Assembly (NCBI GenBank): GCA_030634465.1
Contig: DAOWAS010000002.1
Location: 1-53,809, forward strand
Source of the DNA: Alphaproteobacteria bacterium
GTDB lineage: Bacteria; Pseudomonadota; Alphaproteobacteria; Sphingomonadales; SMXR01
Direction: 5' to 3'
DNA: 53,809 nt
Shown: piece by piece, positions 3,894 to 31,781 of the stretch
How positions within the stretch are numbered: position 1 is the stretch's first letter
Layout of the letters: each line of letters begins with the position of its first letter
Notes under the pieces: generated by a model
Seen by the model: the letters and a program-made list of their open reading frames with translations, nothing else
Databases searched by the model: none
What the model was told of the DNA's origin: nothing
Translations under genes and position numbers: made by a program

Positions 3894-4096
3894 ATATTTT
3901 CCTATTTTTTTTTGAGGTTTTTCTGTTGCGCAATAAATAATTTTAATATTTAGTATGTGAACCTATAGGCAGTAAGCTGGCTAATCAAGTGTAAACAAAC
4001 GGGCTTCATTGCATCTCACTTACTTATATTATAATATTCTTATATTGTATGGAGTGTGTAGGAGTATTGATACATTTTTCTAATTCAGGGTGGGTG

Positions 4097-5572
4097 ATGG
4101 AGGTTTCTTTGTTAACAGGAAAAAAAATTCTTATAGTAGAAGATAGTAAGACCGTACGAAGCATTATTTCTAAGGTGTTTAGTGATGCTGGGTGCGAGGT
4201 TTCTACCGCCATTAATGGGCTGGATGCTATTGAGAAAATTTCAGACCTGCGCCCTGATTTAATAACCACAGATGTGGATATGCCGCAAATGGATGGCTAT
4301 GAGTTTTGCACCTATATCCGCTCAGGCCAAGACCCTTCTGTGCCAGATGAAATTTCACAAACACCAATTATGGTTATCACGTCCAGTGATACCTACGGGA
4401 TGCGTGAAAAATGGTTTGAGTTCGGAGCAGCTGAGTTCATTTTAAAGCCTTTTGAGAATGACGAGCTTATAGATGCGGCAAAGAGAATTCTGGTTCCCGA
4501 TATTTCCATAAAAAATCTGACCGTATTAATAGCCGAAGATAGCGCAGCTTTGCGGAACATGTTTTCGGGAATAATATCAAGCATTGGCATTAATGTGCTG
4601 ACAGCTGAAAACGGCAAGCAAGCACTCGATCTTGTTAGTGACAAGCAAAATAATATCGATTTGCTGTTTACTGATTATGAAATGCCAGAGATGGATGGCT
4701 TGGAGCTGTGTAAAGCTGCACGAGTTGCAGGCTTTCACCAACCAATTATTTTTTTGACAGCAGTTTCAGATAAAAGCAAGATCATGGATGCCTTTAATAA
4801 TGGGGCAACTGATTATCTTTTAAAGCCTTTTCTGAATGATGAGCTTTTGGCGCGTATGAAGGTTCATCTGGTGAACCAGGCCTTGAAAAAAGATCAACAG
4901 CAACGTTTGAATGTCCTTGAAAGTAAAGTTGTTTCTGGAAACAAAGAGTTGGTTGAAAATCAAATTTCTGCACTGCATATGATGGCTTCTTTAATAGAGC
5001 ATAGGGACCCTGAAACAGGCAAACACACCCAAAGAACTCAAAAATATATTGAAACAATGTTGAATGAACTGATTAAAATACCTAAATATCAGGCACAGTT
5101 TGGGCTTGAAGATGTCGCTAACATTGTTCAGTCATCACCTTTGCACGATGTCGGTAAAACGGCTGTTTCTGATGCAATACTATTGAAACCGGGCAAGCTC
5201 ACTGATGAAGAGTTTGAAATTATGAAGCATCATACCATTCATGGGGAAAATGCCTTGAGATCGGGTGAGCAAAATTCGTTTATGATCTATGCTGCAGAAA
5301 TAGCAGGAAGCCATCATGAGAAGTGGGATGGAACTGGCTACCCTCGCGGCTTGTCGGGAGAGGATATCCCAATGTCTGGCCGTTTGATGGCGCTGGCTGA
5401 TGTTTACGATGCCTTGAGGTCAGAGCGTGTTTATAAAGATGCAATGTCTCATGACAAGTCAAAGCAAATAATTCTGGAGGGCAGTGGCAAACACTTTGAC
5501 CCGCTATTGGTAGATTTATTTATAAAACTGGAAGATGAGTTTCAGCATATAGCCATAAAGTTTGCCGATTAA
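4097..5572 (+). CDS. Response regulator with two receiver domains and an HD-GYP phosphodiesterase domain (RpfG-like)
   Basis: REC1 is KKILIVEDS...TDVDMPQMDG. REC2 is LTVLIAEDS...TDYEMPEMDG. The HD-GYP domain has PLHDVGK...HHEKWDGTGYPRGL. Start placed at ATG 4097 (GGGTGG 4-9 nt upstream); the ORF-track ATG at 4049 is possible. Confidence 0.85.
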   Translation: MEVSLLTGKKILIVEDSKTVRSIISKVFSDAGCEVSTAINGLDAIEKISDLRPDLITTDVDMPQMDGYEFCTYIRSGQDPSVPDEISQTPIMVITSSDTYGMREKWFEFGAAEFILKPFENDELIDAAKRILVPDISIKNLTVLIAEDSAALRNMFSGIISSIGINVLTAENGKQALDLVSDKQNNIDLLFTDYEMPEMDGLELCKAARVAGFHQPIIFLTAVSDKSKIMDAFNNGATDYLLKPFLNDELLARMKVHLVNQALKKDQQQRLNVLESKVVSGNKELVENQISALHMMASLIEHRDPETGKHTQRTQKYIETMLNELIKIPKYQAQFGLEDVANIVQSSPLHDVGKTAVSDAILLKPGKLTDEEFEIMKHHTIHGENALRSGEQNSFMIYAAEIAGSHHEKWDGTGYPRGLSGEDIPMSGRLMALADVYDALRSERVYKDAMSHDKSKQIILEGSGKHFDPLLVDLFIKLEDEFQHIAIKFAD

Positions 5573-6443: not shown

Positions 6444-7379
6444 CTAACCATCTTTATTTATAATAGTGATTAACTCGTTGACCGTATTTGGTGCATCTAA
6501 ATTAGCAACCTGACAGGTGCCCGCAGCACTATGGCCTCCGCCGCCATATTTCAAACAAAGCTCTCCCACATTGGTGGCGGAAGACCGATCTAATATTGAT
6601 TTTCCGATAGCAAGAACTGTATTTTGCTTATCTTTACCCCACATTACATGAATAGAAATATTACACTTGGGGTAAATGGCGTAAATCAAGAAACGATTGC
6701 CAGTAAAAATGGTTTCTTCTTCCCGCAAGTCCAAAATAACTAGGTTTTTATGGACGGTTGAGCAGCGCTGAACTTGTTCCTTGAACTTTTCATTTTGCTC
6801 AAAATACAGTTTAATGCGCTCCTCCACGTCGGGCATTAAAAGAATTTCATCTATGCTCATTTCGCGGCAGCAATCGATTAAATTCATCATCAATTGGTAG
6901 TTTGAAATTCTGAATTTATGAAAGCGGCCCAGTCCGGTTCGGCTGTCCATTATAAAACTCAATAATACCCAACCCTTAGGGTCAAGAATTTCGCTTTCGC
7001 TAAATTGGGCTGAATCTGCCCGATCCACAGCATCCATCATCTCTTCACTAATTTTGGGAAACTTCTCGCTTCCACCATAGTGGTTATAAGCAACCCGCGC
7101 GGCAGATGGTGCATCAGGGTCGTTTATTAAATTGCTAATTTCCCCACCGCCTAGGCGACTAGTTTCGCTGGAATGATGGTCAATACAAAGGTGGCAGCCC
7201 TCTACGTAAGGCAGGTTAGTAGTTATGTCGCGGTCAGTAATTTCAACTAGGCCGTCTTGCATATCCTTTGGGTGAACAAATTTTATTTCGTCTATAAGGC
7301 CCATTTCCTTCAATAAGGCTGCGCAAACTAAACCATCAAAATCACTTCTGGTTACTAAACGATATTTTGTATCCGACAC
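6444..7379 (-). CDS. DHH-family phosphoesterase (exopolyphosphatase-related)
   Basis: 311 aa. The N-terminus (LVTRSDFDGLVCAALLKE...FVHPKDM) and the later IDHHS and GGGGHSAAG motifs are DHH/DHHA1-like. Confidence 0.6.
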   Translation of the reverse strand: MSDTKYRLVTRSDFDGLVCAALLKEMGLIDEIKFVHPKDMQDGLVEITDRDITTNLPYVEGCHLCIDHHSSETSRLGGGEISNLINDPDAPSAARVAYNHYGGSEKFPKISEEMMDAVDRADSAQFSESEILDPKGWVLLSFIMDSRTGLGRFHKFRISNYQLMMNLIDCCREMSIDEILLMPDVEERIKLYFEQNEKFKEQVQRCSTVHKNLVILDLREEETIFTGNRFLIYAIYPKCNISIHVMWGKDKQNTVLAIGKSILDRSSATNVGELCLKYGGGGHSAAGTCQVANLDAPNTVNELITIINKDG

Positions 7380-7791: not shown

Positions 7792-10437
7792 CTATAGAAG
7801 GTTTGACTTTGTTATTCGATGAAATTCATCAAGGCTTTCTTTTAGGGTTTTCTTTCCTATTTTTATTTCAGGTAAAAGTTTGGTTATATTCATTTTCTTT
7901 TCTTTTTTGCTTAATGTTTGGCACCAGTTTGTCATTTTAATAAAGCCAATAACGCCAGAAGCTCCTGTTAAACGATGAATATACTCTTGGAATTGTTTGG
8001 CATCATTGTTTGTAATTGCCTGCTCCATTAAGCTAAGTGTATTTGTGCAATTATCCTCGTATGAGGTGAGCATTTTATTGAACTCATTTTCAGGTAACAG
8101 CTCGTTATATTCACTTAATATATCTAAATTTAGTAGCTTGGAAGTTGCTGTAGCACTGCGTGCTGGCGCTATAGTCTCGGTAATAATATGCCGATCAAAG
8201 TGATGGCTAATTAATTGGTTGAACTCTTTTTTGTCAAAGGGTTTCGGAATTGTGTCTAACATGCCGACAGAGCGGTAAACCTCTTTAGCATGGGCGGAAA
8301 GGTCTGCGGTAAAGGCAAAAATAAGCGGGATGTTTTTATTATCAGCAAAAATTTCTTTTATTCTTTTTGTGGTTTCAATGCCGTCCATTTCGGGCATGTG
8401 AATGTCCATTAAAACAATATCAAACTCATTATTAATAACTTTTGAAATTGTCTCCTCACCTGATGAAGCCGTATCAACCTCGTGATTATCTAAAGATAGA
8501 AGTTTTGCAATTGTAATGCGATTACTTTCAAAATCATCAACAAGTAAAATTTTAAGAGGCTTTATGTTTTCGCTAGGAAGGTTTGTATTTTCCATGGCCT
8601 GAGGTGAGCCTTCTTCAAGGGTTAGAATAACGGAAAAATCACTTCCCTTTCCCTTTGCGCTTTCAAGAACTATTTCCCCATCTAAGGCTTCAACCAACTG
8701 GTTGCAAATAGTAAGGCCTAGCCCGTTACCGCCATACTTGCGTGAGGTGCCGGTTTCCTCTTGTTTAAAGGCATTAAATATATTCTGCTGGTTTTCTGGC
8801 GAAATTCCAATGCCAGTATCTTTTACAGAAATGCAAAGGGGTGCTGTTTCATTATCCGCATTTTTATCAAGATAAAACGCCTCTAAGGTGACGGTGCCAG
8901 TAATGGTGAACTTTATTGCATTATCAAGCAGGTTGGTAATAATTTGCCTAATTAGAAATGGGTCGCTCATTAAAACTGGGGGCAAAGCATCAATATTTTT
9001 TACAAGTGCTATTTCTTTTTGAACCGCCTTGTCTTTCATCATATCGTAGATGTCATTCAACAGTTCAGTTGGGTCAAAGGCTGTTTTGTTTAGCTTAACT
9101 TCCTCGTTTTCATTTTTTGAAAAATCAAGAATGTCATTTAGTAGTTTTAATAGAAATTGACCTGAGCGGCTAAGGCGGTCTACTAGCTCTTTCTGAGTTT
9201 TGTTGGTTTTGGTGGCCTCTAAAAGCTGAGATGTACCTAGTATGGCAGAAAGTGGGGTTCTGATTTCGTGGCTGACCGTCGCAATGAACGCACTTTTGGC
9301 TTGGTTGGCAACTTCTGCTTCATTTAGAGCCTGACTTATGGCCTGCTCTGCTTTTCTTCTGCGTTTAATTTCTGATCTAAACCTAATAATAAAAATGGCT
9401 AATAAAATAGATGTTATGGATGCAAGAAGAGCCCCGCCCGTTAAATATTTTGTTTGTTCTTTTAGTTGTCCTAGCTCTCGCCCCAGTGGGTTTTGGTCAT
9501 AAATAAAACCACTCAAATCCATTTCTTTGGATAGTATTCCCAAACTAGCGTAGTAAGCTTGGGTTCTATCCCAGCGTTCATGACTGGTGAAGCCAATAGG
9601 GACAACCTCTGGCATAATAAGGGTTTCTGTTTCATTGGCTTCGTACAATAAGTGCTCACGAGATTTGGGCACATCATATTCCTGCAACATCAGGTCTACG
9701 GTTTCTTCTTTGTTGCTCATGGCATATTGCCAACCCTTAAGGCTTGCTTCTAAAAACGCGTTTACAAGCTCAGGGTTTTCGTCAATTTTGCTTTGTGATG
9801 TGAATAAGTTGTCGCCATAAAAATCTAGCCCACCCATAATTGGGCTGAAAACAGTGTAGGGGATATTGTCTTTTTGAAATAAATATGGTTCGTTTGTAGT
9901 GTATATGGTTATTGCTTCAATCTCACCATTTAATAGTTTTTCAGTTGAGAACTCATGCTCAATAAGATTTAGCTTACTTAGATCAACACCCTCAGCATAT
10001 AGATATGCATAAAGCTCGGTTGAGCCTTTTTCGATCATAATTTTACGAGTTGCAAGGTCGTGGATGTTTTGAACATTGCTTGACCCAAGGGACAAAAAAC
10101 CAACAGCCGAGTGTTGGAATATATTTGCCAATATAACAGGTTCGAACCCTTGTTCTTTAAGCAACAAAACATCAGAGGAACCAACGGCAAAGTCCGCATC
10201 TCCTGTCATTACGCTGGTTAGTGGGTCTATGCTTGTTCCAGCTTCTTTAATGGTAACCTTAAGCCCAGCATCACGATAATAGCCCATTTGTTGCGCAGCA
10301 TAATAGCCAGCAAATTGATATTGGTGCTTCCACTTTAATTGCAGGGTTATTTCGGCAATGTCGCCCTTAGCAAATGCTGAGCTGCAAAATAATAAACTAA
10401 CAACAATGATCAGTGATGATATTAACTTTTGGTACAT
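7792..10437 (-). CDS. Hybrid sensor histidine kinase: periplasmic NMT1/SsuA-like solute-binding domain, TM, HisKA, HATPase, REC, Hpt
   Basis: Signal peptide, then [28 protein letters not shown] (SBP-like). TM segment [21 protein letters not shown]-box [13 protein letters not shown] boxes [34 protein letters not shown]...[11 protein letters not shown]. Hpt [12 protein letters not shown]. Confidence 0.9.
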
Positions 10438-10558
10438 AAAAAAGTCATCTTTGTGTTTGTTATAACAACTCTAACTGCCTGCTTATCAAACTATAATACC
10501 ATAGCGGTCACAAGATGAAAGGCTTTCTCTAAAGTTGGGGTTTTGCCAAACATTGCAG

Positions 10559-10582
10559 TGTTAGGAAGCTGTTAGAAAATGG
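10559..10582 (+). promoter_or_regulatory. Candidate OmpR/PhoB-type operator, site 1 (TGTTAGGAAGCTGTTAGAAAATGG)
   Basis: 7-bp direct repeat (C/G)TGTTAG with a 4-bp A-rich spacer (11-bp period). It lies in the divergent kinase/regulator intergenic region, 96 nt upstream of the regulator start. A near-identical site is at 11446-11468. Confidence 0.55.
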
Positions 10583-10677
10583 TTTGAGTTTAATTTGGTG
10601 TTGCGTTTACAATTTATTTTAAATTAAGTATTTTGCATATAAACTGTGCAATTAAGCTGCAATGATAGTTATGAATA

Positions 10678-11406
10678 ATGAACAATATTGACCAAAAGAC
10701 TTTTGATGACGTTGCTGCCAAAATTTTGGTGGTTGAAGATGACCCCACAATACAATTGGCTTTGAAAAGTGTTCTAAAGACACAAAATTGCGATGTGGTT
10801 ATTTTTGATAGGGTTGACCAGGCATGGGAGTGGCTTTTACATAACACCCCAAACGTAGCTATTCTCGATATAAATTTACCGGATGACACAGGGTTTAATT
10901 TAGCCTGTAAAATTAGGAAAAGTTTTGAGTGCGGCATACTAATTTTAAGCACACGGTCTAGCACTAATGATATGCTCCATGCGCTTGAGCTTGGTGTTGA
11001 TCATTATATTACTAAGCCATTTTTGCCGCGAGAGCTTCTTCTTCGTATCAATAATTTGATTTTAAGAAACAGACAGTTGGTTTCTTTGAAATCTACTGTC
11101 ATAGACGAAGTGCAAGTTGGAAACTGGCAAGTTTCGTTTGAGAAGCAACATATAGAAAACCAAAAGGATCAGGTAAAGGGCTTAACAAAGCTAGAGGCGA
11201 ATGTTTTGTTATTGCTAACTTCATCCCCAGGCAAGCTTTTCAACAGAGAAACATTGGTTCACAAAATTCATAATGGTCAAAAAAGACCCACAAACAGAAC
11301 TGTTGATCTGTTGATTATGGGTTTACGCCGAAAGCTAGAAGAGCCAAAGGGCAACCCTAAGCATATTATTACCGTAGCTGGTGGCGGTTATTACTTTCAA
11401 GAGTAA
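10678..11406 (+). CDS. OmpR/PhoB-family response regulator (REC plus winged-helix)
   Basis: REC is KILVVEDDPTIQ...VAILDINLPDDTG. The C-terminus (LTKLEANVLLLLTSSPGKLFNRETL...RTVDLLIMGLRRKLE...GGGYYF) is a typical trans_reg_C. Confidence 0.9.
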   Translation: MNNIDQKTFDDVAAKILVVEDDPTIQLALKSVLKTQNCDVVIFDRVDQAWEWLLHNTPNVAILDINLPDDTGFNLACKIRKSFECGILILSTRSSTNDMLHALELGVDHYITKPFLPRELLLRINNLILRNRQLVSLKSTVIDEVQVGNWQVSFEKQHIENQKDQVKGLTKLEANVLLLLTSSPGKLFNRETLVHKIHNGQKRPTNRTVDLLIMGLRRKLEEPKGNPKHIITVAGGGYYFQE

Positions 11407-11445
11407 TTCTCTTACTTTTATCTCAATTTTACACCCCGCAAGGCC

Positions 11446-11468
11446 TGTTAGAAAGCTGTTAGAAATGG
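11446..11468 (+). promoter_or_regulatory. Candidate OmpR/PhoB-type operator, site 2 (TGTTAGAAAGCTGTTAGAAATGG)
   Basis: Same architecture as site 1 (22 of 23 aligned positions identical, one 1-nt indel). It lies 122 nt upstream of the tpsB TTG start. Confidence 0.55.
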
Positions 11469-11589
11469 CTCTCAGGCTGTGTTTTGTCTTGTAATGTCTA
11501 GCCCTTAGGTAGTCTCTAGCTTAGGAGTATTATAATTTTAATCAATTTGTACTGGTTTTTGGCGAATTTCTATTTTTTAGGAGAATACC

Positions 11590-13281
11590 TTGTCTGTTAA
11601 GTTCAGCATTTCTTGCTTTAGTTCGTTGGTTGCGTTCAGTGTGCTCACATCTCCTTTTGTGCATTCGCAAGAGATTCCAAATAGCCTGCAACCAGATGTT
11701 ATTGATCGTCAGTTTGACCAGCTCCCTGATGCCACATCATCAAGCGCCATTTTAATTCCAACACCAAGCGAGCAATTGCCGCCTGATGTAGCAAGTGACA
11801 CAAGTCTTTTGCTTAATAGTGTGAGCTTGGAAGGTAATAACGAGTTTTCAACCGCTGAATTATCGCAATATTACCAAAGCTATATTGGTGAAAATGTAAG
11901 CCTTGCTACTTTTTTTGCCGTGGCTAATGCCATTACAGACCATTATGCGCAAGCAGGGTTTGCTCTGTCGCTAGCTTATGTGCCAGCGCAAGAAATTGAC
12001 AATGGTCATGTTAGACTTGTTGTGGTTGAGGGTTATGTTGGCGAAATTGATTATACGGGTGATGTGGATAAGGTAACAGATCGCCTGCGAAGTGTATTAA
12101 GCCCAATATTAAACGAACGCCCCTTAACAGTTGCAACAATGGAGAGGGCACTTCTGTTGGCTTCTCGTGAAACAGGTTTTGGTGTTGCTTCGTCTGTTGA
12201 TCGCTCAAGCATTGAGGTTGGTGCCTTGCGTTTAATCGTTGATGTGGAGAATGAACTGGTCAGCGGTGCAGTTGGTATTAACAACAGAGGCTCGCGCGCG
12301 TTGGGGGCGGTATTGGCGGACGTTTCAGTTTCGTTAAATGGTGCATTTGGTGTAGGTGAGCGAATAACAACAAGTCTAAACAAGTCTGTTGCTGATGATG
12401 AATTGTCATACTTCTCACTTGAGGCGGCCTTCCCAATTGGTGTCAACGGAACAGAGCTGTCAATTGGTTATGGCAAGTCAGATGCCAAGCCAGGGTTAGA
12501 AACATTAAGACTTCTTGAGTTTAATGCTGATAGTGAGACATATTTCGTGGAGCTATATCATCCGTTCATTCTTTCTAGAGCGAGAAACCTTAATGCTTCA
12601 GTTCGTTTTGAGGCCAGAGATTCTGAAGGTGAATTGCTGGATATTGTAAATACAAATGAGAAGCTACGCTCTTTACGTATTAGCGGCAGTTACGACATGG
12701 TTGATGATGCAGGCGCGGTAACGCTTGTTAAAACAACCTTTAGTCAGGGCATAAGTGCTTTTGGGGGTTCAGCAAATGATAATGAGTTTAAGGCACGTGA
12801 TCTTGCTCGGTATGATTACAGCAAAATTGATGTCCTGTTTTTCCAACTACGCCCAATTAATGAAACCCTAAGTGTTTATCTTAGCGGTGGAGCGCAGTAC
12901 GGCTTTAACCCCTTGGTTAGTTCAGAGCAGTGTGGCTTTGGCGGCGGCAGTTTTGGTCGTGCCTTTGATAGTTTCGAAATATCAGGCGACCATTGTGTTA
13001 ATGCCAGCGTAGAGCTTAGGTCCATGTACCCCAACCCTATGAAGGGTGTCGATTATATCCAGCCTTATGGTTTTGTTGACGGTGGCAAGGTGTGGCTAAA
13101 ACAAGCTGAAGGCGTTAGTTCAATTTCTCAAACTGGTTACAGCGCGGGTGCTGGTATGCGGGCAATGTTTTTGAACAACGTTAGTGGCTATGTTGAGGTG
13201 GCACTTCCAATAAATAGAGATGTTGAGCAGGCGGGCAATAGAAAAGCTCGTGTATTCGCTGGTTTGAGAGCAATTTTTTAG
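11590..13281 (+). CDS. TpsB (ShlB/FhaC/HecB-family) outer-membrane two-partner-secretion transporter
   Basis: 563 aa. TTG start with AGGAGAA 5 nt upstream. Signal peptide, a POTRA-like N-terminal region (VSLEGNNEFSTAEL..Y...IG), and a beta-barrel ending ...RVFAGLRAIF (aromatic C-terminus). It sits directly upstream of a TPS-domain exoprotein. Confidence 0.88.
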   Translation: MSVKFSISCFSSLVAFSVLTSPFVHSQEIPNSLQPDVIDRQFDQLPDATSSSAILIPTPSEQLPPDVASDTSLLLNSVSLEGNNEFSTAELSQYYQSYIGENVSLATFFAVANAITDHYAQAGFALSLAYVPAQEIDNGHVRLVVVEGYVGEIDYTGDVDKVTDRLRSVLSPILNERPLTVATMERALLLASRETGFGVASSVDRSSIEVGALRLIVDVENELVSGAVGINNRGSRALGAVLADVSVSLNGAFGVGERITTSLNKSVADDELSYFSLEAAFPIGVNGTELSIGYGKSDAKPGLETLRLLEFNADSETYFVELYHPFILSRARNLNASVRFEARDSEGELLDIVNTNEKLRSLRISGSYDMVDDAGAVTLVKTTFSQGISAFGGSANDNEFKARDLARYDYSKIDVLFFQLRPINETLSVYLSGGAQYGFNPLVSSEQCGFGGGSFGRAFDSFEISGDHCVNASVELRSMYPNPMKGVDYIQPYGFVDGGKVWLKQAEGVSSISQTGYSAGAGMRAMFLNNVSGYVEVALPINRDVEQAGNRKARVFAGLRAIF

Positions 13282-13299
13282 GTTCGGTAAGAGGTTATT

Positions 13300-16200
13300 A
13301 TGACACTTAGTAATAAAAAATATTTGAGATTATCAACAGGTTTGGGCCTTGTGATGGCACTAGCTGTTGTTACGGCAAATTATACCCAAGCTGCTGATAC
13401 CAAGCCAGAAGATGGTGAAGTTGTTCGTGGTGAAGCCACTATCGATTATAATGGCCTTAATACCACCATTAATCAAAACAGTCTTAAAGCCATTATTAAT
13501 TGGGACAGTTTTTCTGTTGGTGAGGCAGGCAGTGTTGTCTTCAACCAAACTGGTGCTGATGCCGTAACCCTTAACCGAGTTACTGGCGATGGTGTTTCTA
13601 ATATTTTGGGTTCAATTACCGCCCCTGGTCATGTGTTTTTAATTAACCGCAACGGTATTATTTTTGGTGAAGGCTCAACTATTAACGTTGGTGGTTTGGT
13701 TGCTTCAACATTCGACATTTCTGACAATAATTTTTGGTCAGGAAATTATTTGTTTGATAAGGCTGGGGTTGCCAGTGCTTCGGTTGAAAACTTTGGTAGC
13801 ATAACCATTAAAGAAGGTGGCTTGGCCGCATTTGTGGCGCCATATGTGGCAAACTCAGGCGTTATTAATGCCCGTCTTGGCTCAGTGTCATTGGGTGCTA
13901 GCGAAACAGGCTTTGCTTTAGATTTTTACGGTGACGGCTTAATTAAATTTGTGGTTCAAGAAGAAACCCAAGCGCGTCTTGGCCTTGGCGAAGACAGCTT
14001 AGTGGGTGTTGACGTGTCAGGCAGCATTTTGGCTGATGGTGGCATAGTTGCCATTACTGCTGATGTAGCGCGTGAGGTTGTATCTGACATTTTGACCATT
14101 GGCGGCGAAATTCGCGCCAATAGCATTGAGGAACGTGAAGGTAAAATTATCTTGTCAGGCCCTGACAATGGGCGCATTCGCATGAGCGAAGATGCCACGC
14201 TTGATGCAAGCGGTACTCACGGCGGTAGCATTGAGGTTGACGGCGACGTGGTGCTATTGGATGGCGTGTTAGATGCTAGCGGCGACGCGGCTGAATATAA
14301 TGACGCGCTTTCTTATCTATACGGTATTGGTGCGCAACAATCTATTATTGATACGGTTTTAGCACGTGCCAATGGCGGTAATATTAGCGTTAACTCCAAC
14401 TGGTTCAGCCTTGGTGGCGTGCTTGATGTTAGCGGTGCCAACGGTGGTAACATTGACATTAACGTAGGTGGTTTTTCAAACACTGGCGTTAGTTTGGCAA
14501 TTGGCCAGCAAGGCGGCGGTGGTAATATTAGCTTTGATGTTGATACCACAGTATTAGAATTTAACATGGCTTACACCGATGCCTCAGGTTTGGTTGATGG
14601 TGGCTCTATCAGCATGCTTGCTGGGCATCAAATAACATCATCTGGCACATATGTGGCAGATGGCTTGTTGGGTAACGGCGGTAATATTGATGTTTCAGCC
14701 AGCGTAACCAAATCGCTATCAGCACGCTACGGTGCGCGCGGTGGTATTGACGGTGGTCGCATTCGCTTTGGTGGCGAGTTCCAAGGCGGCAAAAACTTAG
14801 CAGAAGGCACAGACGAACTAGCCAATGCTGATGTTACAATTGTCAGTTCTGGTTCGCTTTTTGATGTAACTGGTGGCGGCACTGATGGTATTGGTGGCGG
14901 TGAAGTTATTATCTGGTCGGATGACAAAACCATTTTCCAAGGCTTGATAACAGGCGATGGTGCCTTTGTTGAGGTGTCGTCAGCAGGCGATTTAGAATTT
15001 GTGGGTGATGTTGAAATTGGCGATGGTGAGCTGTTATTAGACCCTAAAAACCTTATTATAACAGAACTATTTGGCACTCCATCGCTCTCTCTTATCCTTG
15101 GTTATCAATATTCTGACGTGCAGCAAGAGGCAGGCACATGGATTGAAAGCTTTGATAATTTTGGGGTGAGGGTAGCACTTGATGGCGACCATTTAGCTGT
15201 TGGTGCCATGATGGACAAGGGGGCTGATAACGCCACATCTAGTGCCGGTGCTGTTTATTTATTCACCTTCATAGCTGGCGATATGTCACAACCTGTTTTG
15301 TCAGCCATTATTGGTGCTGATTATACTGGCGGTAATAATATTGATAATACCTCCATTGAAGCTGGGGATACCTTTGGTTACGGCCTTGCACTAGAGGGCA
15401 ATAAATTGGCTGTTGGTGCAGCCAATGACGATGGCTTTGGTAATGGCGCCATATTCTCAGGTGCTGTATATTTATACACTTTCACAGATAATTTTAATTC
15501 CATTACTGAGGTTGCTGTAATCGGATCTGGTTATACTGTAGGTGAAAATGTAGATGTTGGTCCCCTTGACCTGGGGGATGCTTTTGGTACCAACATAGGG
15601 TTAAGCGGCAACCTTTTAGCCATTGGTGCATCAGGTGATGATGGTAACGCTAATGGATTAACGGATTCAGGTGCGGTTTATCTTTTTAGTTTTACTGGTG
15701 ACTTTACCTCCATAACTCAACAAGCAATAATTGGCTCAGGTTACGCTGGAACTAATGATCTCGACCATACTGGCCTTGAGGCAAGCGACAGGTTTGGCTC
15801 AGCAGTGGCATTGGACGGCACTCTTTTGGCAGCTGGCTCACCTAGTGATGATGGTAGTGGTAATGGTGTATCTGCTGCAGGTGCGGTTTATCTTTATAGT
15901 TTCACTGGCAACTTTACCTCTATAACCCAACAAGCAATTATTGGTGCTGATTATGCAGGCACTAATGATGTTGATAATACTGCACTTGAAATAAATGATT
16001 TTTTTGGTTCATCAATTGCTCTTGACGGTACACATTTAGCAATAAGTGCCACTGGTGATGATGGTAGCGGCAATGGTGTGTCTGGTTCAGGCGCTGTATA
16101 TCTTTATAGTTTTGCTGGCGATTTTACCTCTATAACTCAACAAGCAATAATTGGTGCTGATTATACAAGTGGTAACAATGTTGATAACCATCATTTAGAT

Positions 16201-19200
16201 GGTGATGCCTTTGGCAGGTCATTAGCTTTGGATGGCGGCCGTTTGGTTGTTGGCACTTTTAGTGATGATGGTGCAGATAATTCATCAACAGATTCTGGCG
16301 CAGTTTATCTTTATAGCTACACAGGTGATTTCACCAACATCACCCATGAAGATACTATTGGTTATGGCTATGCGACAGATATTTCTTTGGATGTTGATGA
16401 TTATTTTGGCAGAAGCTTGGCTTTGAGAGGCAGCCTGTTGGCTGTGGGTGCAAGTGGTGATGATGGCATTGGAAATGCCACAACTTATGCGGGAGCGGTT
16501 TATTTATTCACTTTTATCGGCAGTGATCTTACAAACCCAATTTTGTCTGGTATTATTGGGCAAGGTTATACAGGTGGTAATAATGTGGATAACACTGCGC
16601 TTGCTAGTGGTGATGTTTTTGGTGCTGCAGTTGCACTTGATGGAAACCATTTAGCTGTTGGTGCTACTGGTGATGATGGTAGTGGCAATGGTGTGCCTAC
16701 TTCAGGTGCTGTGTATTTGTATAGCTTTACTGATAACTTTAAAGCCATAACCCTAGAGGCAATTATAGGTGCTGATTACGCTGGCACAAATGATTTAGAT
16801 AACACTTCGCTCCAGCCTAGTGACCAGTTTGGGGTATCAGTTGCACTTGATGGCACCCATTTGGCCGTTGGTGCGTTTAGTGATGATGGTAGTGCAGATG
16901 ACGTGTTGACAGGTGGCGCAGTTTATTTATATAGCTTTACAGGTGATTTTACCTCAATAACCCAACAAGCTATCATTGGTTCTGACTATTCTGGTGGCAA
17001 CAATTTTGATGTTGCATCCATTGAAAGCAGTGATTATTTTGGTTCGTCGGTGGCATTAGATGGCACACTTTTGGCCGTGGGGGCGTGGAGAGATAGCGGT
17101 ATATACTCTAGTGCTTATGGTGCGGTCTATCTATTTAGTTTTACTGGTGATTTCACGGGCATCACCCAAGAAGCCATTATAGGGCAGGGCTATTCGGGTG
17201 GTAATAACGTTAATAATAATTGGTTAGGCGATCAAGACCAGTTTGGCTATTCAGTGGCGTTAGATGGCAACCTTTTGGCCGTAGGTGCTCCTTCAGATGA
17301 TGGTTACACTGGCGGGTGGAATAATGGTAAGGTTTATTTATACAGTTTTACAGGAAACTTCACATCTATAACACTTGAATCCCACGTTGGTTGGAATTTC
17401 ACAGGTACAAATGATGTTCATAATAGTAGCCTAGAATATAGTGACAAATTTGGCAGTGCAATTGCATTAGATGGCACCAACTTAGTTATTTCTGCCAAAG
17501 ATGATGATGGTGGCGATAACAGTGTTGAAAATTCTGGCGCAGTTTATCTTTATAGTTTTACTGGTAATTTCACTGATATTACATGGCAAGAAACCCTTGG
17601 CCATGGGCAAGAGATAAACTTTGACCTTGGTGTAGGTGATAGGTTTGGCAGTTCAGTAGCCTTGGATGGTAAGCATTTGGCTGTTGGTGTGTCTAGCGAT
17701 GATGGTGTTGGTGATGGAGTGCCCTCAGTAGGTGCAGTTTATTTATACACTTTTCTGGGTGATGATTTAAAGAACCCTATATTGTCAGCCATTATTGGTG
17801 ATGGTTACAGCGGTGGTAATAATATAGACAATACGTCACTTGGGTTTGCCGATATATTTGGTGCATCAGTTGCCCTCGAGGGTGATCTTTTAGCAGTTGG
17901 TGCAGTTGGAGATGACGGTAGCGCTGATGGTGTTACTGATGCAGGTGCTGTTTATCTATATAGTTTTACAGGAGATTTTAGCTATATAACCGAGCGTGCC
18001 ATAATAGGGTCTGGATACACAAATAGTGGAGATGTGGACAACACAGCACTCGGTGCGAGTGATTATTTTGGACGCTCAGTTGCACTTGATGGCTCACTTT
18101 TAGCAGTTGGCGCTGATGGTGATGATGGCGCTGCGGATGGAGTGTCAGATGCAGGTGCTTTGTATATTTATAGCTTTAGTGGGAATTTTGCATCATTAAA
18201 CCAAGAAATGGTAATTGGCTCTGGTTATTCTGGAGCCAATGCGGTTGATAACACCTCACTTGAAGCTGGTGACCAGTTTGGTTATTCAGTGGCTCTTGAT
18301 AGCCCACTGATAGCTGTAGGGGCCATCAGCGATGATGGTAGTTTTGATGATACACCTAATGCTGGTGCAGTTTATCTTTATAGCTATATTAATGACCTAA
18401 CCACCATTACCCAACGGGCGATTATTGGGGTCGATTATTCGGGTGGTAACAATATTGATAATACAGCGATACAATCCGCGGATAGGTTTGGCTATTCGGT
18501 GGCACTAGATGGCACGCATTTGGGCGTTGGTGCACCATTAGATGATGGATTTAATAATAATGTGTCTAATTCAGGATCGGTCTATCTTTATAGTTTCGCA
18601 GGTAGTTTCAACGCACTAAGTTTAGAGGCAACCATTGGTGCTGATTATACTGGCGGTAATAATGTTGACGAGACATTTGTTGAAGCTAATGATGAGTTCG
18701 GTAGATCTATATCTTTAGACGGAAATAATTTAGCTGTTGGTGCAATGGGTGATGACGGCAGTGATAATAGTCTTTTGACTATGGGCGCTGTTTATCTTTA
18801 TGAAAATGTGTTTGCACCTGTTACGGGAGCAACTGGTTGGAACTTTGCTGACGATACTGGTGCCACAAGTATAGTTGACGTTAATCAAATAACAGATATT
18901 CTTAATGCTGGCACCAATGTTACTCTGCAAGCATCAAACGACATTACACTTAATACGGACCTGATTGTAGCTAACCTTTCTGGCTATGGAGGTACACTAA
19001 CCCTGCAATCTGGTCGCAGTATTTTAATAAATGGTAATGTCACTACTGATCATGGCAGTTTGACATTTGTGGCAAATGATATTGCGGCAAATGGTGTTGT
19101 AAATGCCGACCGCGATGCAGGTGCCGCAGCAATTACAATGGCAAGTGGAACGTCTATTGATACTGGGACTGGTGCTTTTAAAGCTACTCTCTCTACAGGG

Positions 19201-21558
19201 GCGGGTAATACCAATTTAACATCAGGCGACATCACCCTAACCGATGTAACCTCTGAAACTATACTTGTTGAAAATTTGGGGGCATCTAACGGCGATGTAA
19301 TATTAAACGGTGTGTTATATGCAACAGAAGCAGCTGGCTTTACCACCCCACTTGTTGTGGCATCACTTGGTGGTAACTTTATAAACAACGTAGGTGCTGG
19401 TGCTTTGGTTGTTGAAGACACTGGCGAAGATTACAATCGTTGGCTTGTTTACAGTCAAAACCCAACAGACAACACCAATGGTGGTTTGGATGGTATTCAG
19501 TGGTATAACACAACGTATAATAGCGCTGCGCCAACCACGATTAATGATTTCACCGATAGTAATCGCTTTGTTTATACTCAAACAGCTACATTGTTAATAA
19601 CCGCAGACGATGTGAGCCGTGATTATGGTTTGGCTAACCCCACCTTTACCACCACAATAACTGGTTTTGTAAATGGTGAAACAGATGCGATAATGTCTGG
19701 CTCAGCGGCAACACCAACCACAACAGCAACTGCCACTACTAATGTGGGTACAGCTGTTATCACACCCGGGTATGGTAGCCTTAGTGACCGTTATAATTAC
19801 CAAGCGTCGCTGGTTAATGGCACACTAACAATCGACCCTGCCACTTTAACAGTAACAGCAGATGATGCCTCTCGTACTTATGGCGAGGCTAACCCAACAT
19901 TAACCTCAAGCATAACTGGTTTTATGAATGGGGAAACATCTTCTGTATTATCAGGTGCGGCTGGAACCCCATCAACAACAGCTACAGCCACAACTAATGC
20001 AGGCACAACGGCTATAACTATTGATACAGGTACACTTTCTGCAACTAACTATGTGTTCGTTGCAGCAGATGGCACCCTTACAATAAATAAAGCCACGCTA
20101 ACTGTTACGGTTGGTGATGAAACACGAGTTTATGGCGATGCCACCGAGATTTTTAATGTGAATGTTACAGGTTTTGTTAATGGCGAAGATATATCTGTAG
20201 CTTCTAACTTAACACTTTCATCCAATGCAACAGCAACGTCAGATGTAGGCACATATGCTTTAAGTGGTTCAGATGCTACCGCCGACAATTATACATTTAC
20301 CTATGTTGATGGTGCCTTAACCATAACCAAAGCACGGTTAACAATTGTTGGTGCAGACGCGACCTCCACTTACGGAACAGTTCGCACTGATTATGATTAT
20401 AGTGTTACTGGGTTCTTAAATGGTGATGATGCTTCTGTAATAACTGGCGCGGTAATATTTGATTTAGATCCAAATTATAGCGCAACGTCGGCAGCAGGAT
20501 CACAGTTTGAAATAGATACAAATGCTTTAGGTCTAGCATCAACCAATTACACCTTCACTGGGGTTGATTTGATATTAACCGTTGAGAAAGCACCATTGAC
20601 CGTAACCTTAGGCGACGATAGTAAAACATACGATGGTTTGGCCTACAGCGGTGGTAACGGTATAACTTACACAGGCTTAGCTAATGGCGAAACCGAGGCA
20701 GTGCTTGGTGATGTGCTATCATTTGGTGGCACAGCGCAAGGTTCTGTTAATGCGGGTACATATACAATTACCCTTGAGGGCTTAACCTCAACCAACTACA
20801 CCATAACCTTTGTTGATGGTGCCTTAACCACCGACAAGGCGGCTTTAAGCGTTACAGCTAATGATGATAGCAAAATTGCTGATGGCGTTGCCTATAGCGG
20901 TGGTAACGGTGTTGTTTACGCAGGCTTTGTAAACAGCGAAACTGATACTGTATTGGGTGGAGATGTAACATATAGCGGCACCTCACAAGGTGCAGTTGAC
21001 GCAGACACATATGTAATTACACCTGAGGGTCAAACCTCTGATAATTACACCATAACCTATGTTGATGGCACCTTAACCATTGAAGCTGGTGCTGGCGGCG
21101 ATGGCGGTGACGGTGGTTCAGACGACCCTGCTGATCCTGTTAATGACCCTGTGCCACCTGCGCCTCCTGTAAGCGACCCACCTGTTGATACTTCAACAGA
21201 TAGTTTGCCAGATAACTCACCTGCACCAACAGCTCAGGTTGTTAGCTCTGGCAGTGTTTTGGTTGTGGCTAACGCTGTTACAGAAGAAATAACTATCACC
21301 TCAAATGTGATAAGTGTTGAGCTTCCAGACGGTATATTTGACCATGAGGACGACACAGCTACATATACAGTAACAGCGACATTGCCAAATGGTGAGCCGT
21401 TACCTGAATGGTTGTCATATGATGCCGAGACCAATACATTAACTGGTGTTGTTCCTGAGGGCTTCTCAGGTGAGATTGACGTATTGCTAACCGCTGAAGA
21501 TGCACAGCAAAATACAGCACAGACAGTTGTTAAAATTAATGTAACCTCAGAAGGTTGA
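13300..21558 (+). CDS. Giant TpsA exoprotein (2752 aa): TPS/haemagglutination-activity domain, beta-helix, 18 FG-GAP-type blades, beta-helix, 6 MBG-type repeats, Pro-rich linker, cadherin/Ig-like C-terminal domain
   Basis: Sec signal peptide. TPS motifs are INQNSLKAIINWDSFSVGEAGSVVFNQ...LNRVTGDGVSNILGSI...FLINRNGIIFG. The blade consensus FG.SVALDG..LAVGA..DDG.G.G....GAVYLYSF occurs 18 times. The MBG-like unit (TLTVTADDASRTYGEANP...NY.F...DGTLTI) occurs 6 times. The tail is TATLPNGEPLPEWLSYDAETNTLTGVVPEGFSGEIDV. Confidence 0.9.
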   Translation: MTLSNKKYLRLSTGLGLVMALAVVTANYTQAADTKPEDGEVVRGEATIDYNGLNTTINQNSLKAIINWDSFSVGEAGSVVFNQTGADAVTLNRVTGDGVSNILGSITAPGHVFLINRNGIIFGEGSTINVGGLVASTFDISDNNFWSGNYLFDKAGVASASVENFGSITIKEGGLAAFVAPYVANSGVINARLGSVSLGASETGFALDFYGDGLIKFVVQEETQARLGLGEDSLVGVDVSGSILADGGIVAITADVAREVVSDILTIGGEIRANSIEEREGKIILSGPDNGRIRMSEDATLDASGTHGGSIEVDGDVVLLDGVLDASGDAAEYNDALSYLYGIGAQQSIIDTVLARANGGNISVNSNWFSLGGVLDVSGANGGNIDINVGGFSNTGVSLAIGQQGGGGNISFDVDTTVLEFNMAYTDASGLVDGGSISMLAGHQITSSGTYVADGLLGNGGNIDVSASVTKSLSARYGARGGIDGGRIRFGGEFQGGKNLAEGTDELANADVTIVSSGSLFDVTGGGTDGIGGGEVIIWSDDKTIFQGLITGDGAFVEVSSAGDLEFVGDVEIGDGELLLDPKNLIITELFGTPSLSLILGYQYSDVQQEAGTWIESFDNFGVRVALDGDHLAVGAMMDKGADNATSSAGAVYLFTFIAGDMSQPVLSAIIGADYTGGNNIDNTSIEAGDTFGYGLALEGNKLAVGAANDDGFGNGAIFSGAVYLYTFTDNFNSITEVAVIGSGYTVGENVDVGPLDLGDAFGTNIGLSGNLLAIGASGDDGNANGLTDSGAVYLFSFTGDFTSITQQAIIGSGYAGTNDLDHTGLEASDRFGSAVALDGTLLAAGSPSDDGSGNGVSAAGAVYLYSFTGNFTSITQQAIIGADYAGTNDVDNTALEINDFFGSSIALDGTHLAISATGDDGSGNGVSGSGAVYLYSFAGDFTSITQQAIIGADYTSGNNVDNHHLDGDAFGRSLALDGGRLVVGTFSDDGADNSSTDSGAVYLYSYTGDFTNITHEDTIGYGYATDISLDVDDYFGRSLALRGSLLAVGASGDDGIGNATTYAGAVYLFTFIGSDLTNPILSGIIGQGYTGGNNVDNTALASGDVFGAAVALDGNHLAVGATGDDGSGNGVPTSGAVYLYSFTDNFKAITLEAIIGADYAGTNDLDNTSLQPSDQFGVSVALDGTHLAVGAFSDDGSADDVLTGGAVYLYSFTGDFTSITQQAIIGSDYSGGNNFDVASIESSDYFGSSVALDGTLLAVGAWRDSGIYSSAYGAVYLFSFTGDFTGITQEAIIGQGYSGGNNVNNNWLGDQDQFGYSVALDGNLLAVGAPSDDGYTGGWNNGKVYLYSFTGNFTSITLESHVGWNFTGTNDVHNSSLEYSDKFGSAIALDGTNLVISAKDDDGGDNSVENSGAVYLYSFTGNFTDITWQETLGHGQEINFDLGVGDRFGSSVALDGKHLAVGVSSDDGVGDGVPSVGAVYLYTFLGDDLKNPILSAIIGDGYSGGNNIDNTSLGFADIFGASVALEGDLLAVGAVGDDGSADGVTDAGAVYLYSFTGDFSYITERAIIGSGYTNSGDVDNTALGASDYFGRSVALDGSLLAVGADGDDGAADGVSDAGALYIYSFSGNFASLNQEMVIGSGYSGANAVDNTSLEAGDQFGYSVALDSPLIAVGAISDDGSFDDTPNAGAVYLYSYINDLTTITQRAIIGVDYSGGNNIDNTAIQSADRFGYSVALDGTHLGVGAPLDDGFNNNVSNSGSVYLYSFAGSFNALSLEATIGADYTGGNNVDETFVEANDEFGRSISLDGNNLAVGAMGDDGSDNSLLTMGAVYLYENVFAPVTGATGWNFADDTGATSIVDVNQITDILNAGTNVTLQASNDITLNTDLIVANLSGYGGTLTLQSGRSILINGNVTTDHGSLTFVANDIAANGVVNADRDAGAAAITMASGTSIDTGTGAFKATLSTGAGNTNLTSGDITLTDVTSETILVENLGASNGDVILNGVLYATEAAGFTTPLVVASLGGNFINNVGAGALVVEDTGEDYNRWLVYSQNPTDNTNGGLDGIQWYNTTYNSAAPTTINDFTDSNRFVYTQTATLLITADDVSRDYGLANPTFTTTITGFVNGETDAIMSGSAATPTTTATATTNVGTAVITPGYGSLSDRYNYQASLVNGTLTIDPATLTVTADDASRTYGEANPTLTSSITGFMNGETSSVLSGAAGTPSTTATATTNAGTTAITIDTGTLSATNYVFVAADGTLTINKATLTVTVGDETRVYGDATEIFNVNVTGFVNGEDISVASNLTLSSNATATSDVGTYALSGSDATADNYTFTYVDGALTITKARLTIVGADATSTYGTVRTDYDYSVTGFLNGDDASVITGAVIFDLDPNYSATSAAGSQFEIDTNALGLASTNYTFTGVDLILTVEKAPLTVTLGDDSKTYDGLAYSGGNGITYTGLANGETEAVLGDVLSFGGTAQGSVNAGTYTITLEGLTSTNYTITFVDGALTTDKAALSVTANDDSKIADGVAYSGGNGVVYAGFVNSETDTVLGGDVTYSGTSQGAVDADTYVITPEGQTSDNYTITYVDGTLTIEAGAGGDGGDGGSDDPADPVNDPVPPAPPVSDPPVDTSTDSLPDNSPAPTAQVVSSGSVLVVANAVTEEITITSNVISVELPDGIFDHEDDTATYTVTATLPNGEPLPEWLSYDAETNTLTGVVPEGFSGEIDVLLTAEDAQQNTAQTVVKINVTSEG
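15100..18804 (+). repeat. In-frame array of 18 FG-GAP-type units (~64-70 codons each) with a 6-unit higher-order period
   Basis: I counted 18 (A/K/S)(V/L)Y(L/I)(Y/F) cores. Variant short-linker blades start at nt 15100, 16360 and 17599. Neighbouring units share long near-identical DNA: 15913-15954 vs 16123-16164 is 40/42 identical. Confidence 0.85.
19585..21084 (+). repeat. Six tandem MBG-type (YG-containing) domain repeats, ~83 codons each
   Basis: Each unit opens A(T/A/P/R)L(T/S)(V/I)T..D.S(R/K).YG (YDG or ADG in the last two units) and closes NY.(F/I).(Y/F)VDG.LT(I/T). Confidence 0.7.
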
Positions 21559-21583
21559 TATAAAAAAACTAAAGGAAATAAAA

Positions 21584-22099
21584 ATGAGACATGCCGTTTT
21601 ATTGGGTCTAGCTTTGAGTTTTTACCCAACATTCAGTGCTAATGCACAAGAAAGTACAAGCTACACTTATGGTGACTGGAAAGTTACATGTGTTGAACGT
21701 GAAAATGCGTTGCCATGTGAAATGACACAAAGCTTAATCGACAGTACATCTGGTCAAACTGTAACACATTTTTCACTAGCTTATTCACCCGTTGATGAAG
21801 CTTATGCCATACAAATATCAGTACCCCTAGGCGTTAAGCTAGAGGGCGGCATGGTTATAAAAGCAGGGGAAACAGTTGTTGAGGGCATACGCTTCTCTCG
21901 TTGTTTGCCAGGCGGTTGCTTAATTGAAGCAAAACTGGAAGACCCATTGTTAGGAGCCATGTCAGCTGGTGGTGAGGCCGCAATTGCAGTGGTTGATGCA
22001 TCAGGGCAGGCAGTTTCGTTGCCATACTCACTAAACGGCTTCGCTGATGCTAAAGCACAACTGGTGAAAGAGACCACCACCCGCATGCCTCAGAACTAA
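21584..22099 (+). CDS. Invasion-associated locus B (IalB)-family periplasmic protein
   Basis: 171 aa. Signal peptide ...FSANAQE. YGDWKVTCVE...LPCEMTQSL...FSLAY...V.EGIRFSRCLPGGCLIEA is the IalB pattern. It starts 25 nt after the tpsA stop, with an AAGGAA SD. Confidence 0.75.
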   Translation: MRHAVLLGLALSFYPTFSANAQESTSYTYGDWKVTCVERENALPCEMTQSLIDSTSGQTVTHFSLAYSPVDEAYAIQISVPLGVKLEGGMVIKAGETVVEGIRFSRCLPGGCLIEAKLEDPLLGAMSAGGEAAIAVVDASGQAVSLPYSLNGFADAKAQLVKETTTRMPQN

Positions 22100-22468: not shown

Positions 22469-22545
22469 TGGTGATCCCGACAGGATTTGAACCTGTGGCC
22501 TCAAGATTAGGAATCTTGCGCTCTATCCAACTGAGCTACGGGACC
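22469..22545 (-). tRNA. tRNA-Arg (anticodon CCT), CCA encoded
   Basis: 77 nt: GGTCCCG TA GCTC AGTTGGATA GAGC G CAAGA TTCCTAA TCTTG AGGCC ACAGG TTCAAAT CCTGT CGGGATC A CCA. All four stems pair (one G-T in the acceptor stem). The anticodon loop TT-CCT-AA gives CCT. Confidence 0.93.
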
Positions 22546-30674: not shown

Positions 30675-31781
30675 TTAACCTTTTTTGCTTTTCTTCATGC
30701 TGTTTTTAAGCACAGTAAGTGCGGCAAATGGCGAGTTTGGATCCATGACAAACTCTTTTTTAGGTGCCAGTTTTTTACCGTGTGGTTTTTTGTTTTGCGG
30801 TTTGGCTTTTTTGACTTGTGGTTTAGGTGTGGCTGGTTTTTTTGCACCCTGCCAAGCAAAGGTGTAAAATTCAGCTTCCTCTTTGCCCTCTTCTTGTTTT
30901 TTGTGCTTGCGGCTTTGGTATCCAATGGCGTTCATTACCTTGGCAAAGTCATCACCTGACAGGCCAACTAAGCCCATGGTTTCTGGCGACACTTCAAAGC
31001 TAGCCCCTTTAAGACCAAGCGGGCGCACCGCATCAGCCAAACGCTCAACCATATCAACCCGCACTGCTTTGTTGCCCGCAGGGCTATAGCCTGACAGACG
31101 GTAAAACTCAGGCAAGGTGCCTTTTTCCATATCAACCCACACCATGCCCGGTGTTGGTGGTGTTGGCAGGGTTTTAATTTTTTTGTTCAGCGCCCAAAGC
31201 ATAAGCCGCAACTGGGTGGGGGCAGGCTTTAAAATATATGGGATGAAAATGCTTGATGCGCCAATTTTAATTTTAAAGCGCCACAAACCTTTCCTGTCTT
31301 CGGTACTTACAGCTTTAAGTTTATCTTCCACCAAGGCGCGGTCCATAATGCCAAGGTTGTCTAACAAGCTAGATGCAATGTCCTTGATAGCACCAGTTAG
31401 TGGGGCGGCATCATTTTCAGGCGCGGCGCTGTTGTTTATTTCGCCATCCATAAGAACAAGTGATTTGAGGTTGCCCGCAATATAATCATCCAGCCATTTT
31501 TGCGCATGTACTATGGCGTTTGTGGCATCGTCACCTGTTAGCTTGCTTGTCTTTGCTAGGCTGGCTTTTGGGCTTAGTGCGGTGTTGCCACGCTCAATAG
31601 TTGCAAGGTCTTCGCCCTTCCACTGCAAGTTTGCACCGCTAAGGTCATCGTTAAACTTTAAGGTAATATCGGCTGATGTACCCTTGTCGCCCGCAATTTC
31701 AAAAGTTACCACTTCTTCTGTTACTTTTTTTTGCACTTCTGCTGTGGTTTCTGTAGCGGGCTGTTCTTCTTTACTAGTCAC
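30675..31781 (-). CDS. Hypothetical protein with Lys-rich C-terminal tail; no enzymatic motif recognised
   Basis: 368 aa with an 8-nt gap to hslR. The tail is KKPATPKPQVKKAKPQNKKPHGKKLAPKK...DPNSPFAALTVLK. It resembles, from memory, the C-terminal region of alphaproteobacterial SUV3-like helicases, but it has no Walker motifs. Confidence 0.6.
   Translation of the reverse strand: MTSKEEQPATETTAEVQKKVTEEVVTFEIAGDKGTSADITLKFNDDLSGANLQWKGEDLATIERGNTALSPKASLAKTSKLTGDDATNAIVHAQKWLDDYIAGNLKSLVLMDGEINNSAAPENDAAPLTGAIKDIASSLLDNLGIMDRALVEDKLKAVSTEDRKGLWRFKIKIGASSIFIPYILKPAPTQLRLMLWALNKKIKTLPTPPTPGMVWVDMEKGTLPEFYRLSGYSPAGNKAVRVDMVERLADAVRPLGLKGASFEVSPETMGLVGLSGDDFAKVMNAIGYQSRKHKKQEEGKEEAEFYTFAWQGAKKPATPKPQVKKAKPQNKKPHGKKLAPKKEFVMDPNSPFAALTVLKNSMKKSKKG

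Follow-up and report, generated by a model that had tools for sequence, protein, structure and literature searches.

Paired direct repeats flanking an OmpR-type response regulator gene as candidate operators for autoregulation and adhesin control in an uncultured alphaproteobacterium

Contig DAOWAS010000002.1 of an uncultured alphaproteobacterium, whose full length of 53,809 nucleotides is called the window here, contains two 23-nt elements on either side of a gene for an OmpR/PhoB-family response regulator. These elements are probably operators of the response regulator encoded between them, which would use them for autoregulation and for control of an adjacent two-partner secretion (TPS) adhesin operon. 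They are assigned to this regulator because their layout has the binding geometry of the family and the protein retains the full set of receiver residues. In OmpR/PhoB-family proteins, phosphorylation of the receiver aspartate produces a dimer whose winged-helix domains sit head-to-tail on direct repeats one helical turn apart, as in the DNA complexes of PhoB, KdpE, and PmrA. Three sequence features that mark operators of this family are present at the locus: direct half-sites about one turn apart, a neighboring regulator built of receiver and Trans_reg_C domains, and elements that are intergenic and conserved in one orthologous locus.

The Repeat Elements

Box 1 (10559–10582, + strand) reads TGTTAGGAAGCTGTTAGAAAATGG, is written TGTTAGgaagcTGTTAGaaaaTGG as a box, and lies in the 240-bp divergent intergenic region between the kinase and regulator genes, 96 nt 5′ of the regulator ATG. 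Box 2 (11446–11468, + strand) reads TGTTAGAAAGCTGTTAGAAATGG, is written TGTTAGaaagcTGTTAGaaaTGG, and lies 40 nt 3′ of the regulator stop codon and 122 nt 5′ of the TTG of tpsB. In each box, a TGTTAG(A/G)A half-site is repeated in tandem, which gives two TGTTAG hexamers. The half-sites start at 10559 and 10570 in box 1 and at 11446 and 11457 in box 2, which gives a direct repeat with an 11-bp period. A first-pass annotation of the window had described two near-identical elements with this period, and its coordinates and letters were confirmed; its distance of 122 nt from box 2 to tpsB is likewise correct for a TTG start at 11590. The two boxes are themselves direct repeats 887 bp apart, placed around the regulator gene, and their likeness is limited to 20–23 nt between unrelated flanks.

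The tandem motif is rare, in that its 20-nt core TGTTAGNAAGCTGTTAGAAA matches only twice in the 53.8-kb window even when three mismatches are allowed, compared with 0.01 expected by chance, and none of 100 shuffles gave two matches. When the spacer is left free, the pattern TGTTAGNNNNNTGTTAGAA matches only boxes 1 and 2 at up to two mismatches on both strands of the window, and in 2.12 Mb of unrelated bacterial loci it has one match when a single mismatch is permitted and 21 when two are. The first-pass annotation had named background frequency as a check on its proposal, and the outcome favors it, with a pair of sites in the window and, elsewhere, roughly one match per 2 Mb at one mismatch. 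The single heptamer CTGTTAG is not enriched in the window (8 seen against 5.8 expected), so the signal resides in the tandem arrangement. In a collection of species-representative genomes that does not include the source genome, the strict 20-nt pattern has nine scattered single matches in unrelated phyla, which is consistent with chance. Additional weaker sites in the window were considered and none was accepted; three-mismatch matches are mainly intragenic and occur at about the chance rate.

Conservation at an Orthologous Locus

A search of 5.8 billion proteins found a single close relative of the regulator, P0002, with 62% identity. All others are at most 39% identical, and the next-best proteins (P0003–P0005, 37–39%) are found in unrelated contexts with other kinases. 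The gene for P0002 lies on the 5-kb contig L090, which comes from the same metagenome but from another organism (51.5% G+C versus 43.6%). The divergent neighbor of the regulator gene on L090 encodes an orthologous kinase, whose sensor half is 69% identical and contains the same NMT1 domain. Single-sequence and alignment-based scans of genome contigs, the latter with unspecific peptide patterns, found no regulator orthologue above 37% identity. A hand-made degenerate pattern for the recognition helix, DLLIMxLRRKL, matched only non-regulator DNA in genome and metagenome collections.

L090 carries a counterpart of each box on the regulator's strand. That of box 1 (1304–1322, TGTTAGatttgTATTAGAA) lies 139 nt 5′ of the regulator start, and that of box 2 (2209–2227, TGTTAGaattcCGTTAGAA) lies 53 nt 3′ of the regulator stop codon and 156 nt 5′ of the next gene. 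Both occupy the corresponding intergenic regions in the same orientation, and each has a single mismatch to the 14 specified positions of the window pattern. In a first-order Markov simulation of the two L090 regions, a match at up to two mismatches arose in 0.3% of trials per region, and matches in both regions arose in none of 5000 trials.

The spacers differ between the species (GAAGC and AAAGC versus ATTTG and AATTC), while the hexamers, the AA that follows them, and the 11-bp register are kept. The two L090 boxes also have spacers unlike each other and retain the half-sites and the register. Such preservation of half-sites with diverged spacers is the pattern that would be expected of a protein-binding direct repeat and not of a neutral duplication. 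The proposal of the first-pass annotation therefore also withstood phylogenetic footprinting, since L090 retains the repeat in both regulator-flanking intergenic regions with its orientation and half-sites conserved and its spacers diverged. In an alignment of the regulator-to-cargo intergenic regions of the window and L090, no conserved block is longer than the box; the automatic alignment of the kinase/regulator intergenic regions shifts the boxes by one half-site.

Other short matches lie near the boxes. The block AATTTTAYAC occurs exactly 11 nt 5′ of box 2 in both species (window 11425–11434; L090 2188–2197); it could represent another half-site, an UP-like element, or a chance match. Possible weak third half-sites in the 11-bp register are GGTTTG 3′ of box 1 (window 10570–10588) and GATTTG 5′ of box 2 (L090 2198–2216). 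L090 also contains a lone TGTTAGAA (1381–1388), 60 nt 5′ of its regulator start.

The Regulatory Cassette and Its Cargo

The gene 3′ of box 2 on L090 (2365–4965, + strand) encodes a large cadherin/Big_9/He_PIG repeat protein and is not tpsB; the contig ends inside this gene. The closest tpsB orthologue, P0244 (63%), is on L184 (4045–10050), where it lies 3′ of a YcaO-domain gene and of a gene for an unknown 368-aa protein. L184 has no adjacent two-component system and no TGTTAG repeat in the 300 nt upstream of tpsB, and its sole match, at the tpsB/tpsA junction with three mismatches, is at the chance rate. A 44% tpsB orthologue on L185 (8001–14875) similarly has neither an adjacent two-component system nor a TGTTAG repeat. 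In both L184 and L185, the tpsB orthologue is followed by a giant gene.

Because the L090 cargo is not tpsB, and because the tpsB orthologues without the system have no repeat, the motif accompanies the regulator rather than the cargo. On this comparison, the conserved unit is the kinase, the regulator, and the two boxes, placed ahead of different giant surface-protein genes. The regulatory cassette thus appears to be conserved while the adhesin behind it is exchanged. The first-pass annotation had joined nucleotides 7792–22099 into one sensory-effector module, a description that holds for this species at most and fails for a conserved unit, since the downstream gene differs between species.

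A broader generalization is possible and is offered tentatively, as it is rather doubtful at present. The kinase, the regulator, and two TGTTAGAA-repeat operators might constitute a portable cassette in an uncultured alphaproteobacterial lineage, found ahead of unrelated giant surface-protein genes (TPS-secreted FG-GAP/MBG in one case and cadherin/Big_9 in the other). The cassette would couple adhesion to a small molecule sensed by the NMT1/THI5-like domain, and it would represent a distinct, undescribed TorSR-like subfamily with a defined operator.

The Kinase and the Regulator

The divergent gene 5′ of box 1 (7792–10437, − strand) encodes a hybrid sensor histidine kinase with the Pfam architecture NMT1-HisKA-HATPase_c-REC-Hpt. 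The protein contains a signal peptide, a periplasmic NMT1/THI5-like binding-protein domain, and one transmembrane segment. The binding-protein domain spans residues 40–245, is of the SsuA/ThiY type, and is fused to a TorS-like phosphorelay core. Just 3′ of the kinase gene and on the same strand is a 311-aa open reading frame (6444–7379, − strand), which gene callers also report in other assemblies.

The gene between the boxes (10678–11406, + strand) encodes a 242-aa protein with a Pfam receiver domain (PF00072, Response_reg) and a winged-helix domain (PF00486, Trans_reg_C). It is the OmpR/PhoB-type winged-helix regulator that the first-pass annotation had recognized, of canonical make-up, with the acidic pocket, Asp-64, Ser-91, and Lys-113 conserved. 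Receiver residues Asp-21, Asp-22, Asp-64, Ser-91, and Lys-113 (D21, D22, D64, S91, K113) are identical in the window regulator and its L090 orthologue. The best solved-structure match of the regulator is BaeR. A prediction of specificity from solved DNA-binding domains was discarded, as the top match had an E-value of 1e-8 and was too distant for use.

In the favored reading, in which the boxes are operators of the local regulator, the NMT1/THI5-like binding-protein domain of the hybrid kinase would detect a small ligand in the periplasm. Phosphate would then be relayed from His to Asp to His (Hpt) and on to Asp-64 of the regulator. The phosphorylated regulator would dimerize, and its two winged-helix domains would bind head-to-tail on the tandem TGTTAG(A/G)A half-sites, which are 11 bp, or one helical turn, apart. 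Occupancy of box 1 would serve autoregulation of the regulator gene and possibly regulation of the divergent kinase gene too. Occupancy of box 2 would drive tpsB-tpsA-ialB, leading to secretion of the giant FG-GAP/MBG surface protein. We infer the sign of regulation and the promoter architecture from the sequence, and likewise binding by the regulator and the ligand.

Promoter Context and Sign of Regulation

A candidate sigma-70-type promoter for the regulator gene (10584–10613, + strand; TTGAGT-18 nt-TACAAT) begins 8 nt 3′ of the second half-site in box 1 and is a consensus match only, at 9 of 12 positions. On the tpsB side, the candidate −10 hexamers are TGTAAT (11490–11495, + strand), 27 nt 3′ of box 2, and a perfect TATAAT (11531–11536, + strand), each without a recognizable −35. 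Between the regulator gene and tpsB, an automatic promoter scan listed no complete promoter on the + strand. Activation is more likely than repression because all four boxes, two per species, are oriented like their downstream genes and precede candidate −10 elements, with box 1 ending 8 nt before a promoter-like sequence and no recognizable −35 on the tpsB side.

The same regulator acting at the same sites could instead be a repressor or roadblock, for example in a TorR-like negative autoregulation. TorR represses its own gene through tor boxes 1 and 2. A minus-strand promoter-like match in the window (TTTATA-16 nt-TAAAAT, 10643–10616) would set box 1 downstream of a kinase-directed start, and the promoter positions are tentative. 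We nevertheless consider repression unlikely. All four boxes are oriented as the regulator and cargo genes, and box 2 precedes −10 hexamers that lack a −35, which is usual for an activator-dependent promoter; neither point is decisive.

The regulator-tpsB intergenic region contains no terminator-like site, and the sole one found is inside the 3′ end of the regulator gene. As no terminator lies 3′ of the regulator gene, read-through could couple autoregulation to the tpsB operon.

Comparison with Known Two-Component Systems

The system is, by sequence, nearest to TorS/TorR rather than to PhoB, because the top-scoring named models are TorS for the kinase and TorR for the regulator and PhoB scores lower. 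The best NCBIfam match of the kinase is TorS with 393.3 bits against a cutoff of 676.5, and its score against phoR_proteo is 133 bits (cutoff 334). The best NCBIfam match of the regulator is TorR with 142.4 bits against a cutoff of 275, and PhoB (TIGR02154) gives 122.8 bits (cutoff 296.2). The system belongs to neither the TorSR nor the PhoBR family, since all of these equivalog cutoffs are missed, tor and pho genes are absent from the window, and the sensor domain differs.

TorS/TorR of Escherichia coli and Salmonella resembles the system in the window in that a hybrid kinase with a receiver and an Hpt domain signals to an OmpR-family regulator. The torR gene neighbors its target operon, and the regulatory region that the two share contains the boxes. 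The tor box, a decamer that TorR binds as direct repeats, is CTGTTCATAT (PMC9239176). Compared with CTGTTAGAAA in the window, only CTGTT is common, and both are direct repeats of about 10 nt that begin with CTGTT. Unlike TorSR, the system described here has no torCAD or torT in the window, a fused NMT1/THI5-like sensor, two half-sites per site instead of four boxes, and an adhesin rather than a respiratory target.

The Pho box is CTGTCAT-N4-CTGTCAT, and the boxes in the window match it in being 7+4 direct repeats with an 11-bp period and in having a TGT core; the two regulators are winged-helix proteins of one superfamily. However, the local regulator falls short of a PhoB equivalog, its partner is a hybrid phosphorelay kinase instead of PhoR, and the half-site (C/G)TGTTAG is off at two of six positions. 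The boxes also lie about 27–32 nt 5′ of the candidate −10 elements, compared with 10 nt for the Pho box. The term "Pho-box-like" used in the first-pass annotation is therefore apt for the geometry and not for the sequence, as the system is nearer to TorS/TorR.

The elements could also be real OmpR/PhoB-family operators that are bound by another regulator, such as the housekeeping PhoB, which would place the system and its adhesin under phosphate or global control. TGTTAG shares four of six positions with the Pho box CTGTCAT in the same 7+4 geometry, and the DNA-binding domain of the local regulator is too divergent from solved ones to forecast specificity. A PhoBR-controlled TPS system, PdtAB, exists (PMC5422565). 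This explanation is nonetheless distinctly unlikely. The motif flanks this regulator gene in two species irrespective of the downstream gene, and a tpsB orthologue without the regulator has no copy of it upstream. PhoB in particular is disfavored by a half-site that departs from TGTCAT at two of six positions and by library scans of the window proteins, which found no pst, pho, or phn genes.

Two-component control of TPS operons is documented for BvgAS, CpxRA, PhoBR, EsrAB, and RssAB (PMC5422565). BvgAS, which controls the adjoining fhaB/fhaC in Bordetella, is similar to the system in the window in its hybrid phosphorelay kinase, its periplasmic binding-protein-type sensor domains, and its adjoining two-partner-secreted adhesin. 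BvgA, however, is a NarL/FixJ-type regulator that binds inverted heptads, whereas the local regulator is OmpR-type (Trans_reg_C and not GerE/LuxR) and the boxes are direct repeats. Hexamer-N5 direct repeats are known in the OmpR family for PhoP (TGTTTA-N5-TGTTTA), PmrA, and KdpE, and autoregulation of two-component operons is common. The PhoP half-site TGTTTA resembles TGTTAG, and the tandem hexamers are one turn apart in both. None of these three regulators is orthologous to the local one, and the local half-site is distinct.

Weight of the Evidence

The two copies might have no function and be a relic, either a duplication or recombination scar around the regulator gene or a chance repeat. 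As direct repeats separated by 887 bp that are near-identical even in spacer and 3′ flank, they have the look of such a scar. This is very unlikely, since chance is excluded by two matches against 0.01 expected, no mobile-element genes adjoin the locus, and the L090 copies differ in spacer while keeping the half-sites and 11-bp register, as selection on a binding site predicts. An RNA-level role as a leader, small RNA, or attenuator is barely credible: box 2 could be read through from the regulator gene with no terminator between, but the regulator-tpsB intergenic region has no Rfam family and no stable RNA fold relative to shuffles (z +0.36), the direct repeats do not pair with each other, and box 1 is in the divergent promoter region.

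Several points count against the boxes being operators of the local regulator. The window copies are nearly identical in spacer and 3′ flank too, beyond what half-site recognition needs, and this near identity could reflect a recent operator duplication. The promoter-like matches are not above those in shuffles (5 versus 3.9 expected), and promoter-to-box spacing is conserved neither between the two species nor between the two sites. Of the source genome, motif frequency covers the 53.8-kb window, with 2.12 Mb of unrelated loci for comparison, and footprinting covers the single orthologous locus, L090. Four other assemblies of the source organism are 99.9% identical and thus uninformative for variation.

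If the boxes are operators of the local regulator, an uncultured alphaproteobacterium would have a complete signaling circuit that runs from a binding-protein sensor through a phosphorelay and an operator sequence to a giant secreted adhesin. The operator would provide a defined DNA motif for locating the remaining regulon, and the system would be another case in the short list of two-component systems that control TPS operons. It would also suggest that the regulatory unit, and not the cargo, is conserved. The understanding of response-regulator action is unchanged. Control of this sort is commonplace among bacteria, although the alphaproteobacterial lineage here is poorly sampled.

The Adhesin Operon and Surrounding Genes

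The tpsB gene (11590–13281, + strand) encodes an Omp85-type transporter with a signal peptide and the Pfam domains POTRA_2 (PF08479) and ShlB (PF03865), and its TTG start is 3′ of an AGGAGA ribosome-binding site. The tpsA gene (13300–21558, + strand) encodes a 2752-aa secreted protein in which Pfam identifies an N-terminal TPS domain (PF05860, residues 35–294), 18 FG-GAP_2 stretches, six MBG_2 stretches, and a C-terminal He_PIG Ig-like domain. The pair is a two-partner secretion (type Vb) system, with POTRA_2 and a ShlB barrel in TpsB and the N-terminal TPS domain in the adjoining TpsA. Its FG-GAP_2, MBG_2, and He_PIG composition makes TpsA an unusual passenger. An IalB-family gene follows. 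This gene (21584–22099, + strand; Pfam IalB) lies 25 nt 3′ of tpsA and is presumed to be the last of the operon solely from this same-strand spacing.

A gene for a 507-aa protein with two receiver domains (4049–5572, + strand) is separated from the end of the kinase gene by about 2 kb, in which three small genes of no assigned function lie. The best NCBIfam match of this protein is a NosR-family response-regulator cyclic di-GMP phosphodiesterase, with 209 bits against a cutoff of 400. Three open reading frames have no Pfam match: the 311-aa frame at 6444–7379 (− strand), a 368-aa frame at 30675–31781 (− strand), and a 760-aa frame at 37375–39657 (+ strand). The 311-aa and 760-aa frames have no NCBIfam match either.

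The rest of the window is ordinary chromosome, with genes for SecA, NrdAB, AccA, CobST, CarD, a sigma factor, and a XerC/D-like recombinase. SecA puts the source organism within the uncultured Alphaproteobacteria; its best named relatives are 65–70% identical and come from Sphingomonadales metagenome-assembled genomes and Kordiimonas. A tRNA-Arg(CCT) gene (22469–22545, − strand) lies about 370 nt 3′ of ialB, and the two-component region (6–12 kb) has 39% G+C, compared with 43.6% for the window. Together, the tRNA-Arg gene and the low G+C content may mark the boundary of an acquired island in which the module resides.

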